A stretch of DNA of 64,000 nucleotides from contig JAQUAI010000005.1 in the NCBI GenBank assembly GCA_028687335.1, positions 49,972-113,971 of the forward strand. The letters run 5' to 3'. Positions 560 to 6,420 of this stretch are shown here, one piece after another (positions within the stretch are counted from its first letter, which is position 1; each line of letters begins with the position of its first letter). The position numbers and the translations under genes were made by a program. Origin of the DNA: Gallionella sp. (GTDB lineage: Bacteria; Pseudomonadota; Gammaproteobacteria; Burkholderiales; Gallionellaceae). The notes under the pieces are model-generated. The model was given only the letters and a program-made list of their open reading frames with translations, was not told the origin of the DNA and ran no database searches.

Positions 560-691
560 TTATCGACTAATCGGCTTATATCGAATCCGCTTAGGCTTCG
601 CACCCTCTTCACCCAAACGCTTCTTCTTATCCGCTTCGTATTCCTGATAGTTGCCATCAAAGAACGTCCACTTGGAATCACCTTCGCAGGC
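560..691 (-). repeat. Orphan copy of the last 43 codons plus stop of ettA
   Basis: Translates ACEGDSKWTFFDGNYQEYEADKKKRLGEEGAKPKRIRYKPISR*. By hand count 15/132 nt differ from 4750-4881, with one amino acid change (K/R). Confidence 0.95.
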
Positions 692-717
692 GTGGATGAA
701 GGAGGCAGAGGCATACG

Positions 718-999
718 TCAAGCCGCCTTTTCAAGACCAGCCTCAGGCATCAGCCTGTTCTGGTACAAGTCAGCAATGGGAAAGCAAAGATCATAGTCGC
801 CCCACACCAACTCGCCGTACTCGATGCGAAACGCCGCGAAGCGTGCGGGGTCTAGATAGGCACGAATATCGGGATGGCGCGAAAGCGACAGGAACGCTTT
901 GAAATCCACCGTCTGCGCCGTGCCGTCATCGAAAGACAGGCGCAGCGCATAATCGCCGACCTGCTCCACCGCTGTGATGTTAAGAGTTGCAGGAATCAT
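718..999 (-). CDS. DUF2442-family protein (putative antitoxin)
   Basis: YALRLSFDDG...GELVWGDYDLCFPIADLY pattern; overlaps the upstream DUF4160-like gene by 4 bp. Confidence 0.8.
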   Translation of the reverse strand: MIPATLNITAVEQVGDYALRLSFDDGTAQTVDFKAFLSLSRHPDIRAYLDPARFAAFRIEYGELVWGDYDLCFPIADLYQNRLMPEAGLEKAA

Positions 1000-1307
1000 T
1001 TCAGCCTCCTTGTGATGCGCTCCGATTTTACGGGTTTGTGCAGCACGAAAAAATCAATCCACTTACTCACAATCTCTGTCGCACGAGCAGAAACAAGCTC
1101 TTCAAAATGACGCATCTCAGTATTGCCTAGCGGAGCGCGTCCGACAACATCCGTATAGCGAATCTCGGCGACCTCGCCGTTAACAACGATGATCTCGGCG
1201 CGAGATTCACGGTCTTGGAACTTACCGTGGACATGCACAGGCTCATGCTCATGCTCATTGGCATAGAACATAATGATCAAACCAAAATATTCGTAGAGCT
1301 TGGGCAT
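996..1307 (-). CDS. DUF4160-family protein (putative toxin)
   Basis: MPKLYEYFGLIIMFYANEHEHEPVHVH...W motif; paired with DUF2442. Confidence 0.8.
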   Translation of the reverse strand: MPKLYEYFGLIIMFYANEHEHEPVHVHGKFQDRESRAEIIVVNGEVAEIRYTDVVGRAPLGNTEMRHFEELVSARATEIVSKWIDFFVLHKPVKSERITRRLK

Positions 1308-1328
1308 TACGCACTCCGTTCCATCAGA

Positions 1329-1424
1329 TCAATCAAACTCCAAACAATTGCGAAGCTGCCCCCTTTGATTCCGAGCCGGATTGAGGTGACGAATCCAGAC
1401 GTTGGTATCCGGCAGGTACAGCAT
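1329..1424 (-). pseudogene. vapC: 5' remnant of a PIN/VapC toxin gene
   Basis: ATG at 1424 overlaps the antitoxin stop (TAATG). MLYLPDTNVWIRHLNP is a typical VapC N-terminus (DTN motif); similarity is lost after about 16 codons. Confidence 0.7.
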
Positions 1425-1666
1425 TATTCCAAGTCCAGCCGCTGCTCGTATTCGCCCTGCGGCTCTCGAACCAAATGCTCGCCTTGCCATGCCCCAGCTG
1501 TTCGCTCCCACACATTTTTTGCATCACCAGCTTGGCTTGTTTTTTTGCCTGCAGCCTCGTCCAGCAGGATCAAAACCCGGACTGGCTGACCTTCTACCAA
1601 ATGGAGAGTTTTGGGCACAGCGATCTGTCCGTGTTCAAGATGCGAGTTAAATTCGATGGCTTGCAT
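1424..1666 (-). CDS. Putative VapB-type (AbrB-like) antitoxin
   Basis: 80 aa with GQIAVP...EGQPVRVLIL and GAWQGE...REPQGEYE patterns; AAGGAGG RBS; translationally coupled to the vapC remnant. Confidence 0.65.
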   Translation of the reverse strand: MQAIEFNSHLEHGQIAVPKTLHLVEGQPVRVLILLDEAAGKKTSQAGDAKNVWERTAGAWQGEHLVREPQGEYEQRLDLE

Positions 1667-1732
1667 GATGACCTCCTTGGTTAGCGGCGAACTGTCTTTT
1701 GCTAGTTTAGCTTAAACGGTTATAGGGTAGAT

Positions 1733-4235: not shown

Positions 4236-4450
4236 AGGTTCCAGTCCTCCATCAACTCGGTGCGATGTTGTGCTGCCCATTCGAGTACGAGTGCCTGCGC
4301 CCGTTTCGGCAGACTACCTTTGATGACTTCCAGCGTGCGGATGTCGACCAAGGCTTCGTACTCGCCATACATGGCGTGAAAGTGAGGCGGCGCATGCTCA
4401 CGCCAGAACATCTGGATGATGATCCCGAAGAACTGGCTGATGGTTGGCAT
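4190..4450 (-). CDS. DUF4160-family protein (second copy)
   Basis: MPTISQFFGIIIQMFWREHAPPHFHA.YG...LVLEWA..H..EL..DW...IAPLE. Confidence 0.88.
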   Translation of the reverse strand: MPTISQFFGIIIQMFWREHAPPHFHAMYGEYEALVDIRTLEVIKGSLPKRAQALVLEWAAQHRTELMEDWNLCQSKQLPKNIAPLE

Positions 4451-4455
4451 GTCGC

Positions 4456-4557
4456 TTACCGCGCGTTTGCTTCGTCGCGATTGAAGCGATAGCCGCGCGT
4501 GAAAATGATAGTCGCCTTGAAAACGTGTTTGCGCTTTTTGGGTTTGACTGTTTGCAT
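4456..4557 (-). CDS. 33-aa antitoxin-like peptide or remnant
   Basis: MQTVKPKKRKHVFKATIIFTRGYRFNRDEANAR* with AAGGAG RBS. The C-terminal F-x-RDEANAR resembles tails of small antitoxins that precede PIN toxins (from recall). Confidence 0.5.
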   Translation of the reverse strand: MQTVKPKKRKHVFKATIIFTRGYRFNRDEANAR

Positions 4558-4617
4558 GGTCAAGCTCCTTGTTGAATAAGTAGCATTCTATTCTGCACTA
4601 AGCATGTAAGCCAGCAA

Positions 4618-4740
4618 CCCTCACCCCCAGCCCCTCTCCCGCCAGCGGGCGAGGGGAGAGCCCTTCGACAGGCTCAGGGCGAACCTTACCCTCACCCCAA
4701 CAGCACCCCCACCCTAACCCTCCCCCGGAGGGAGAGGGGA
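4618..4740. repeat. Cluster of REP-like palindromes directly after the ettA stop
   Basis: CCCTCACCCCCAGCCCCTCTCCCGCCAGCGGGCGAGGGGA (4618-4657), GCCCTTCGACAGGCTCAGGGCGAACC (4660-4685) and CCCCCACCCTAACCCTCCCCCGGAGGGAGAGGGGA (4706-4740). Confidence 0.8.
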
Positions 4741-4749
4741 TAGATGCGG

Positions 4750-6420
4750 TTAGCGGCTAATCGGCTTATACCGAATCCGCTTAGGCTTCGCGCCCTCTTC
4801 GCCCAGTCGCTTCCGCTTATCCGCCTCATACTCCTGATAGTTGCCATCAAAGAACGTCCACTTCGAATCGCCTTCGCAAGCCAAGATGTGGGTGGCGATG
4901 CGGTCGAGGAACCAGCGGTCATGGGAGATGACGGCGACGCAGCCGGCGAATTCGAGCAGGGCATCTTCGAGCGCACGCAGGGTTTCCACGTCGAGGTCGT
5001 TTGATGGTTCATCGAGTAGCAACACGTTGCCGCCGGAGATGAGGGTTTGCGCCAGATGCAAACGTCCGCGTTCACCGCCGGAGAGTTGGCCGACGATCTT
5101 GCCTTGGTCACCGCCTTTGAAGTTGAAGCGACCGATGTAGGCACGCGCGGGTGTTTCGTATTTGCCCACGGTCAAGATCTCGTTGCCGCCAGAGATGGCG
5201 TCGAACACGGTCTTGTCGTTTTGCAGTCCGTCGCGTGATTGGTCGATGTGCGCGATCTTGACGGTCTGGCCGATCTTCACGGTGCCGCTGTCTGGCGTTT
5301 CTTTGCCGGTGATCATGCGGAACAGTGTGGATTTACCCGCACCGTTAGGGCCGATGATGCCGACGATGGCGCCGGGTGGGATCTTGAAGCTGAGGTTGTC
5401 GATGAGCAGACGGTCGCCATAAGCTTTGCTCACACCTTCGAATTCGATGACTTCGTTACCCAGACGTTCGCCCACGGGGATGAAGATCTCCTGTGTCTCG
5501 TTACGTGCTTGGTGTTCTTGCGAGTTCAGTTCTTCGAAACGTGCGATACGCGCTTTGGATTTTGCCTGACGCGCTTTCGGATTCTGGCGCACCCATTCCA
5601 ACTCTTGCTTCATCGCTTTGGCGTGTGCATCCAGTTGCTTCTGCTCTTGCGCCAGACGCTCGCCCTTTTGGTCGAGCCAGCTTGAGTAGTTGCCCTTCCA
5701 AGGGATGCCGTGTCCACGGTCGAGTTCCAAGATCCATTCGGCAGCGTTGTCGAGGAAGTATCGATCATGGGTGACAGCGACCACGGTGCCGGGGAAGCGC
5801 ACGAGGAATTGTTCCAGCCATTCCACCGATTCCGCATCCAAGTGGTTGGTGGGTTCGTCCAGCAACAGCATGTCAGGTTTTTCTAGCAGCAGCTTGCACA
5901 ACGCCACGCGGCGCTTCTCACCACCGGAAAGGTTCTTGATGACGGCATCCCACTCGGGCAGACGCAGCGCATCGGCGGCGATTTCCATCTGGTGCGATGC
6001 ATCGCTACCGCTTGCGGCGATGATGTTTTCTAAGCGGGCTTGTTCGGCGGCGAGTGCGTCGAAATCAGCATCTTCGGCTGCGTAGGCTGCGTACACTTCA
6101 TCCAACTTAGCTTGCGCTTCCATCACTTCGCCGAGTGCGGATTCCACTTCTTGGCGCACGGTTTTGGCGGGGTCGAGCACAGGCTCTTGCGGCAGGTAAC
6201 CGATGCGGATGTTGGGCAGGTGCTGCACTTCGCCGTCGTATTCTTTGTCCTGCTTCGCCATGATGCGCAGCACGGTGGATTTACCCGAACCGTTCAGACC
6301 CAGCAGGCCGATCTTGGCGCCGGGGAAGAAGCTGAGGGAGATGTCTTTGATGATCTGACGTTTAGGGGGGACGATCTTGCTCACGCGGAGCATAGACATT
6401 ACGTATTGGCCTTGTACCAT
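4750..6420 (-). CDS. ettA: Energy-dependent translational throttle ABC-F protein EttA
   Basis: Two ABC cassettes (GLNGSGKS, LSGGEKRR, GPNGAGKS, LSGGERGR); KIVPPKRQIIKDISLSFFPGAKIG N-terminus; KRIRYK C-terminus. Confidence 0.97.
   Translation of the reverse strand: MVQGQYVMSMLRVSKIVPPKRQIIKDISLSFFPGAKIGLLGLNGSGKSTVLRIMAKQDKEYDGEVQHLPNIRIGYLPQEPVLDPAKTVRQEVESALGEVMEAQAKLDEVYAAYAAEDADFDALAAEQARLENIIAASGSDASHQMEIAADALRLPEWDAVIKNLSGGEKRRVALCKLLLEKPDMLLLDEPTNHLDAESVEWLEQFLVRFPGTVVAVTHDRYFLDNAAEWILELDRGHGIPWKGNYSSWLDQKGERLAQEQKQLDAHAKAMKQELEWVRQNPKARQAKSKARIARFEELNSQEHQARNETQEIFIPVGERLGNEVIEFEGVSKAYGDRLLIDNLSFKIPPGAIVGIIGPNGAGKSTLFRMITGKETPDSGTVKIGQTVKIAHIDQSRDGLQNDKTVFDAISGGNEILTVGKYETPARAYIGRFNFKGGDQGKIVGQLSGGERGRLHLAQTLISGGNVLLLDEPSNDLDVETLRALEDALLEFAGCVAVISHDRWFLDRIATHILACEGDSKWTFFDGNYQEYEADKRKRLGEEGAKPKRIRYKPISR

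Follow-up and report, generated by a model that had tools for sequence, protein, structure and literature searches.

How did the 3' end of ettA come to be present twice in a Gallionella genome, with a block of accessory genes between the two copies? The question is raised by one end of a 64,000-nt window, i.e. the whole stretch of DNA analysed here (C15:49972-113971; the whole contig C15 comprises 148 kb), which belongs to a metagenome-assembled genome (MAG) of 2.4 Mb in 31 contigs with a completeness of 88.5% (in the following G000; other G-numbers denote genomes compared with it, L-numbers denote loci). A preliminary description, made from the sequence of the window, had interpreted the region as an array of toxin-antitoxin (TA) and defence cassettes that replaces the end of ettA, and our analysis supports this interpretation as essentially right. 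We conclude that the locus is a scar-bearing variant of an integrase-less defence hotspot, which is overrepresented in one genus and forms part of a broader pattern of gene-end replacement in G000, and we consider it fairly probable that it was formed by repeated homology-anchored insertion-duplication of foreign DNA bringing its own gene end. The gene and its two ends are located as follows.

4750..6420, minus strand: ettA, encoding an intact ABC-F ATPase of 556 aa (open reading frame (ORF); 90-97% identity to EttA of relatives).
4750..4881, minus strand: ettA tail attached to the gene, comprising the final 43 codons and the stop, one copy of a direct repeat (repeat search, codon comparison).
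560..691, minus strand: orphan (displaced) ettA tail, 43 codons plus stop, with degenerate homology out to about 712.

The repeat search of the window identified a direct repeat of 86% identity (560-706 and 4750-4896), which comprises the last 132 nt of ettA including the stop codon, the copies being 4.2 kb apart. Only these two tail copies were detected by whole-genome blastn, the second at an E value of 1e-43, and a protein search with the tail concurs; there is no third tail in the 50 kb to the left or elsewhere on contig C15. Codon comparison confirmed the 15 substitutions and the single conservative amino acid change that had been described for the 132-bp repeat: 13 substitutions are single and synonymous, and one codon carries two changes (AAG/CGG, K/R). 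According to the Nei-Gojobori method, the two tails differ by 13.5 synonymous and 1.5 nonsynonymous changes (pS 0.50, pN 0.015, pN/pS 0.03), which is a between-species level of divergence, and the probability that neutral change produces so synonymous a split is 9e-8. The orphan tail is 91-93% identical to the attached tails of relatives and 88.6% identical to the attached tail of G000. From this coding-type divergence we conclude that both copies diverged as working gene ends in separate lineages and not after an in-place duplication; the preliminary description had already taken both for functional gene ends. As described there, strong homology begins at the codons A-C-E-G, upstream of which about 15-21 nt show a weaker, non-synonymous similarity, with 10 of 21 nt matching the ettA of the window and more matching relatives.

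An artefact or a local event, i.e. a chimeric join in the MAG or a tandem duplication in place with a decaying distal copy, is extremely unlikely to underlie this arrangement. The assembly is an incomplete MAG in 31 contigs, repeats often confuse assemblers, and contigs break at the tails in G088 and G132; however, copies that differ at 15 of 132 sites do not represent a collapsed repeat, the layout of tail, cargo and tail recurs in the one-contig genome G029 and in independent metagenome contigs, and a pN/pS of 0.03 together with a pS of 0.5 rules out neutral decay after a local duplication. The preliminary description had allowed for an assembly chimera, and also for relatives sharing one fixed gene set and a single tail, and neither was found.

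Among the 117 same-genus genomes with an ettA tail, about 25-29 harbor at least two tails downstream of ettA (range 2-6; contig splits may inflate some of the double counts), and the cargo differs between them. Up to four to six tails are located on one contig in G104, G131, G139 and G172, with a spacing of 0.06-4 kb. Distances within tail pairs amount to 0.06-4.2 kb, with a single exception of 12 kb, which is also without an integrase. Outside the genus, more than one tail was observed in about 10 of 320 genomes of the same order (~3%), and eight genomes from other genera of the family have one tail each. Across the genus, the region downstream of ettA is hypervariable and its content differs in nearly every species, with the ettA flank being conserved and the far flank not; in G013, a convergent purB is located directly behind ettA.

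The right boundary of the orphan tails is always the stop codon, where the homology between species ends. Their left ends, expressed as position q within the last 330 nt of ettA, range from q99 to q298, i.e. they start 230 to 33 nt ahead of the stop, and their exact position varies by the nucleotide, even where the adjoining cargo end bears the same motif. The breakpoint near the codons HIL|ACEG that had been proposed for the window is therefore not a fixed site across genomes. Many orphan tails are truncated or contain indels, some of which are in frame.

No match to the tyrosine recombinase family PF00589 was found on the 148-kb contig C15; the matches of the genome are confined to contigs C8, C25 and C7. 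Pfam scans also revealed no recombinase domain in the cargo ORFs, as had been claimed for the DNA between the repeats, or in the 7 kb past the orphan tail, serine recombinases being covered via the Pfam scans of the listed ORFs only. An integrase at the distal end, which the preliminary description had suggested to look for, is thus absent from the contig, and no tyrosine recombinase was found near ettA in ten relatives selected for additional tails or fragments of tails (G002, G006, G019, G029, G015, G104, G131, G139, G136 and G109), the sole exception being a 301-aa Xer-like gene 10 kb from ettA in G002. These results bear on the possibility that the tails are classical site-specific scars, left by tyrosine-integrase elements that target the ettA 3' end and carry the tail in attP, and whose integrases were lost or act in trans as in CIME-type elements or the tRNA-fragment arrays of Prochlorococcus islands. 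A restored gene, with foreign DNA lying between direct repeats of its 3' end, is the hallmark of such integration (Williams 2002, cited in PMC10250203), gene-end-reaching repeats of family-dependent length are normal for tRNA-targeting integrases, and the left boundaries of the tails form loose clusters at about q150-160, q175-190, q244-258 and q281-298. Nevertheless, we regard this explanation as decidedly unlikely: none of the 11 examined loci has an integrase nearby, a full-size element is not seen at the ettA 3' end in 151 genomes, where tail pairs mostly lie 0.06-4.2 kb apart, boundaries differ by the nucleotide even with an identical cargo end, and four further unrelated genes (see below) would require several lost integrases. 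In addition, a 23-mer of the tail, searched as evidence of a phage attP, is absent from viral contigs, and the two contigs inspected among those matched by the protein tail carry whole ettA genes at provirus edges.

The viral contigs with ettA were also considered as an attP source of the 3' tail and were rejected, since the two inspected contain whole ettA genes, one of them with an integrase at the 5' side. The viral loci L064-L076 (other bacteria, IMG/VR) represent proviruses of about 16-54 kb that end exactly at the ettA stop, and in the one inspected, L065:3191-6180, the ettA start is immediately preceded by a gene for a 430-aa tyrosine integrase, which suggests that the 5' side of ettA may serve phages as an attachment region. 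In literature searches, ettA/yjjK as an attachment site appeared only as an island label, "12.DUF756|ettA", in a preprint, and ettA is not mentioned in a paper on E. coli defence islands (PMC10121019).

The scar is not specific to ettA. A genome-wide scan of G000 for direct repeats with one copy ending at the stop of a long ORF returned ettA and three further cases, and a fifth gene end, that of metK, is repeated within the window:

C19:15955-17029 (L130:3956-5030), outside the window: metH tail of 188 nt, which recurs 887 nt downstream behind a DUF4160/DUF2442 pair.
C25:216757-218297 (L131:2758-4298), outside the window: tail of a fadB-like gene (3-hydroxyacyl-CoA dehydrogenase/enoyl-CoA hydratase), 114 nt repeated 1.4 kb downstream.
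C10:17843-18138 (L132:1044-1339), outside the window: terminal 49 nt of a ferritin-like gene, recurring 247 nt downstream, no cargo.
24586-24944 of the window: metK end in three copies, separated by a structured spacer of about 110 nt, no cargo.

Between the metH tails, 10 differences are synonymous and 4 nonsynonymous (P = 1e-4), and about 9 of 88 genus genomes have a second metH tail. The tails of the fadB-like gene enclose a Fic/DOC gene, are followed by a Ser/Thr kinase gene and differ, as judged by eye, at 5 synonymous sites and in 1 nonsynonymous codon. The ferritin-like repeat looks like a short tandem duplication taking in the gene end. The preliminary description, which had regarded ettA as the hotspot, was thus too narrow in this respect.

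Is the tail brought along by the incoming DNA? The cargo next to the attached tail is informative in this regard.

4565..4749, minus strand: G+C-rich hairpin cluster of the CCCTCTCCC...GGGAGAGGG and GCCCTGAGCCTGTCGAAGGG types, directly 3' of the ettA stop.
4190..4450, minus strand: DhiT-like toxin (DUF4160) of pair 1 (DhiT-1; Pfam 1.1e-23).
3915..4280, minus strand: DhiA-like antitoxin (DUF2442, 121 aa) of pair 1 (DhiA-1; Pfam 1.5e-10).
3916..3938, minus strand: motif M1 (AAAACGTGGTCTGTCCCCGATTA), represented by the last 18 nt of DhiA-1.

A unit consisting of tail, hairpin, DhiT, DhiA and M1 is kept in five genomes, with a different right flank in each. Its tail is attached to ettA in G000 and is an orphan in G172, G104, G131 and G136, where newer material lies between this tail and ettA. 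Sampling based on the cargo revealed that the DhiTA-1 cassette is kept in 39 Gallionellaceae loci, at least 15 of which have an ettA tail immediately upstream; in at least 10 of the latter, among them a locus in Ferriphaselus sp. R-1, it is the attached tail. The idea that incoming blocks carry their own tail is therefore supported for the DhiTA-1 cassette, with its left tail in five genomes. Moreover, G172 (L035), G136 (L041) and G101a (L044) share an identical, unusually coded terminal ettA patch of 40-52 nt (CCCAAACGGATACGCTACAAACCTATCAGCCGATAA), upstream of which their ettA genes differ at the normal between-species level and behind which the old tail follows within 6-14 nt, with no cargo in between. 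From this shared patch on differing ettA bodies we conclude that the gene end was exchanged between lineages. The hairpins behind the tails are of the G+C-rich REP type, and their motifs also occur behind tails in G172, G104 and G136; the cluster of the window (fold -31 kcal/mol, z -1.6) is probably a terminator.

Insertion-duplication is our best reading, and we prefer it to an ettA-specific integrase, which fits poorly, and to an integron, which does not fit, because the divergence of the tails is of the coding type, integrases are absent, the inserts are small, the left ends vary, the right ends lie where between-species homology stops and the scar recurs at unrelated genes. Untidy junctions, such as a vapC gene cut after codon 31 (see below) and a shuffled cassette order in a close relative, count in the same direction. 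As regards the route of recombination, the direction in which the arrays grow and the cause of the cargo bias, we infer the following. DNA from another Gallionella lineage, containing the 3' portion of ettA and accessory cassettes, would have recombined into the end of the resident gene, the left join being homologous and inside ettA, which would leave the gene intact with one tail, and the right join being located upstream of the resident stop, which would leave a second tail behind the cargo. This could proceed by a Campbell-type single crossover of a circularised fragment or by homology-facilitated illegitimate recombination, in either case with no participation of a dedicated ettA integrase. 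Once formed, the unit of tail, cargo and tail could be moved into naive genomes by RecA recombination with the ettA body and the orphan tail as arms, and repeats of the event would build arrays, in which older tails and cargo lie farther from ettA. Later, orphan tails would decay as they acquire indels, are truncated or receive a 60-nt palindromic element. The bias towards TA and defence genes might reflect survivorship, because an insert flanked by direct repeats should easily be looped out and would persist only if it is addictive or useful.

Several observations weigh against this explanation. Either tail of G000 may be the incoming one: the identity of ettA along a sliding window to 16 species shows no clear break, and both tails are about equally distant from those of close relatives. 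Since ettA directly followed by DhiTA-1 is widespread in the family, this order may be the ancestral state. An empty-site or donor genome was not found among the genus genomes and metagenome contigs, the exact junction 26-mer being absent from the metagenome contigs, and the before and after of an event was thus not caught. Furthermore, several cassettes have precise right ends, located at the DhiA stop or 5-13 nt past M1 or the M1-like repeat M2, and the same precise end is joined to differing tail positions. Random fragment ends would not give such precision, and a motif-directed enzyme is therefore possible. Finally, E1, the 60-nt palindromic element (GATAACCAGCGACTTGsC-hairpin-GCTTAGTCGAATGGCTAGTAGTTTCATCAG; about 11 copies in G000), lies within orphan tails of relatives at two recurring positions (~q205 and ~q281) and in a single orientation; these positions coincide with the clusters of tail boundaries, and at one of them E1 gives an immediate TAA stop. 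The motif-marked precise cassette ends and the E1 copies inside orphan tails are not explained by the insertion-duplication model. The features concerned, besides the M1 copy at the end of DhiA-1, are:

2547..2569, plus strand: inverted copy of M1, followed by M2, just upstream of a zeta-like gene.
11674-11740 of the window (C15:61645): copy of E1, with further copies at C26:19678, C28:74347, C14:27320 and C15:13771.

M1 is a 25-nt motif with the consensus AAAnCGTGGTCTGTCCCCGATTaTTc, found in many genomes at the ends of cassettes that lie downstream of ettA. The two copies of the window, 3916-3938 and 2547-2569, form a perfect inverted pair of 23 nt that brackets a PD-T7-3 gene, and other M1 sites in G000 are located at C3:143, C12:78542 and C15:148308; the end of an insertion sequence (IS) lies about 20 nt past M1 at two contig edges. 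As a candidate REP or hairpin site, M1 was rejected, since it does not fold (z ~0) and is not high-copy. Rfam contains no family for E1 or the junction motifs. A tRNA gene (10613-10685 of the window, minus strand; Rfam 71 bits) is located about 1 kb from the E1 copy of the window.

These motifs are at the basis of another explanation, according to which the scars are made by dedicated small mobile elements, which would have defined ends, carry a tail copy along into the 3' ends of genes and be moved by an enzyme encoded elsewhere. Candidate ends would be M1/M2, E1 and the hairpin element at metK, whose spacer sequence is unlike E1, and the enzyme could be, for example, the IS200-like Y1 transposase preceded by M1. 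Indeed, M1 or M2 is found 5-13 nt before orphan tails in six genomes (G172, G006, G101b, G153, G088 and G017), at a different tail position each time; M1, a rare motif with 1-6 copies per genome, is nevertheless concentrated downstream of ettA; on contig C3 of G000 it lies about 60 nt upstream of the Y1 transposase gene (Y1_Tnp); and the recurring sites of E1 in one orientation as well as the cargo-free tail duplications in G172, G101a and G136 and at metK would fit such elements. However, the missing hairpin distinguishes M1 from IS200/IS605 ends and from REP sequences, M1 also simply corresponds to the last coding stretch of DhiA in its common 121-aa form, the ettA and metH orphans of G000 have no adjoining M1 or E1, and the flanks of E1 elsewhere in the genome lack the tail target sequence; E1 may simply land in unconstrained orphans. 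We therefore view small elements as a rather doubtful explanation.

With a similarly low expectation, we also put forward a broader possibility, namely that the Gallionellaceae possess a general, integrase-free cassette capture via the last 30-200 nt of ettA, metH, the fadB-like gene and metK, which would be directed by defined cassette ends (M1/M2, small palindromic or hairpin elements) and by some enzyme, possibly the Y1 transposase associated with M1. If true, this would represent an integron-like system devoid of integron parts, in which the incoming unit brings a recoded end, the old end is shunted downstream and the arrays form a record of acquisition.

Which genes would have been acquired in this way? 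All genes between the tails are located on the ettA strand, and the 4.2 kb contain accessory genes only. Besides pair 1, they and the adjoining ORF comprise:

4456..4563, minus strand: 35-aa ORF, similar to the 5' part of a gene (139/157 aa) found in G016 and G017.
2643..3911, minus strand: PD-T7-3-like single-gene anti-phage protein, 422 aa, with an RNRCAH motif (PADLOC PDLC04108, 5.6e-38).
2006..2542, minus strand: zeta-toxin-like/AAA_33 P-loop kinase, 178 aa (Pfam Zeta_toxin and AAA_33).
1854..2009, minus strand: partner ORF of 51 aa, overlapping with the stop of the zeta-like gene, behind which it is also kept in relatives.
1424..1666, minus strand: VapB-type antitoxin-like ORF, 80 aa (weak NCBIfam antitoxin match).
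1329..1424, minus strand: truncated vapC, a PIN N-terminus of 31 codons (MLYLPDTNVW...) that breaks off just before DhiT-2.
996..1307, minus strand: DhiT-like toxin (DUF4160) of pair 2 (DhiT-2), divergent from pair 1 (Pfam 2.3e-9).
718..999, minus strand: DhiA-like antitoxin (DUF2442) of pair 2 (DhiA-2; Pfam 7.4e-7), with its stop 26 nt before the orphan tail.
2..532, minus strand: 3' part of a 412-aa ORF that runs off the left edge of the window and starts 28 nt past the orphan stop.

Profile matches and ORFs agree with the cargo as originally listed with regard to the two divergent DUF4160/DUF2442 pairs, the zeta-like ATPase with its partner and the antitoxin with a truncated vapC. The DhiTA family has been described as a toxin-antitoxin system (PMC8198452), and, as judged from profile matches, both pairs are related to DhiT/DhiA: DhiT-1 reaches 88 bits against the NCBIfam model toxin_DhiT (cut-off 100) and the remaining pair members about 21, all below the equivalog cut-offs. 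On metagenome contig L125, the homology to a relative's copy of DhiA-2 stops at the stop codon. The gene previously termed HEPN-like is present as the 422-aa ORF, with the difference that it matches PD-T7-3 instead; the putative assignment to this family is based on a nearly full-length match to PDLC04108 (residues 16-410 versus 13-421 of the 432 profile positions), and the stretch is AT-rich (36-48% GC versus 54-59% in ettA). The 35-aa ORF, which had been taken for an antitoxin-like peptide, does exist and is probably a gene fragment, given its match in G016 and G017.

The Zeta_toxin model scores 44.4 bits (cut-off 22.3) and covers residues 62-165 only, and the small partner lies downstream, an order unlike that of epsilon/zeta; homologues of the zeta-like gene, 79-90% identical, occur downstream of ettA in G001, G006, G016, G030 and G015. 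G029 and G001 have an intact PIN pair whose antitoxin is homologous to the 80-aa ORF, and the homology of the vapC stub to the PIN gene of G029 ends at the truncation point after codon 31. The foreign gene noted 28 bp behind the orphan copy corresponds to the 412-aa ORF (42% GC), which is nearly unique in the genus, with a relative in 1 other of the 151 genus genomes at 28% identity; beyond it, Phd/ParE and two DnaJ-domain genes follow. In the genus as a whole, the cargo downstream of ettA includes HD plus AEP-like primase, AAA_21/AAA_15, reverse transcriptase, TIR-DnaB, a ParA-like gene, GGDEF, GmrSD, HEPN RiboL-PSP, type III restriction-modification, SNF2 and PD-T7-3, as well as many PIN, RelE and DUF433/DUF5615 pairs.

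How does the locus compare with known systems? It shares with integrons and CALINs the short co-oriented cassettes with many TA pairs, which are stacked at a fixed point with a repeat in between; however, the ettA arrays have no intI, their repeats are gene ends and not attC, M1 is unfolded and the junctions vary. An integron-like hotspot, as put forward in the preliminary description, is therefore not what we found: PF00589, and with it intI, has no match on contig C15, and no structured attC-like site was found among the junction features, with no attC model being applied.

Integrative islands and prophages restore the 3' end of their target gene at tRNA, tmRNA and protein-gene attB sites, and direct repeats flank the insert. 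The ettA locus resembles integrative islands (Williams 2002) in having foreign DNA in a conserved gene end, flanking end repeats, an intact gene and tandem arrays of fragments, but differs from them by the absence of an integrase at the site in 11 genomes, inserts of only 0.06-4 kb, variable boundaries and several affected genes per genome. End repeats and a restored gene are thus found at ettA, and a recombinase at the end and a constant boundary are not.

Insertion-duplication and homology-facilitated illegitimate recombination in transformable bacteria were reportedly described by de Vries and Wackernagel in 2002 and by Prudhomme et al. in the same year. As in our model, one homologous anchor brings in adjacent foreign DNA and is duplicated with no site-specific enzyme; in contrast, the process is known mainly from laboratory crosses, whereas here it would be natural and recurrent, and precise ends at M1/M2 are not predicted by it. 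Arrays of orphan toxin tips and immunity genes downstream of cdiA and rhs, said to have been described by Poole et al. in 2011 and by Koskiniemi et al. in 2014, are alike in that a gene receives a new 3' end, its former end together with a variable stretch of conserved upstream sequence and partner genes is kept downstream and the array grows outward. However, the replaced end is a selected new toxin in these arrays, whereas the peptide is the same for the new and the old ettA end, and the selected cargo would be located behind it.

Core hotspots without mobile-element markers are known from cDHS1/2 of Pseudomonas aeruginosa (PMC10250203) and the defence islands of E. coli (PMC10121019), and homologous recombination was proposed for the exchange at such sites (PMC10250203, PMC10121019). 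The ettA locus likewise has a variable set of defence and TA genes beside a conserved core gene, with no evident mobile machinery. It differs from the core hotspots, which are described as scarless, by the displaced end that its events leave and by the conservation of the ettA flank only, the far flank being unconserved. How defence and TA hotspots build up without mobile-element genes is a stated open question (PMC10250203). A displaced gene end remains from every acquisition here, so that the sequence records how many events took place, in which order and with which junctions, and with over 100 sequenced species in the genus and several genes affected, plain homologous or illegitimate recombination versus a hidden recombinase becomes testable. 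For annotation, short ORFs that match gene ends downstream of ettA or metH should be regarded as scars and not as genes.

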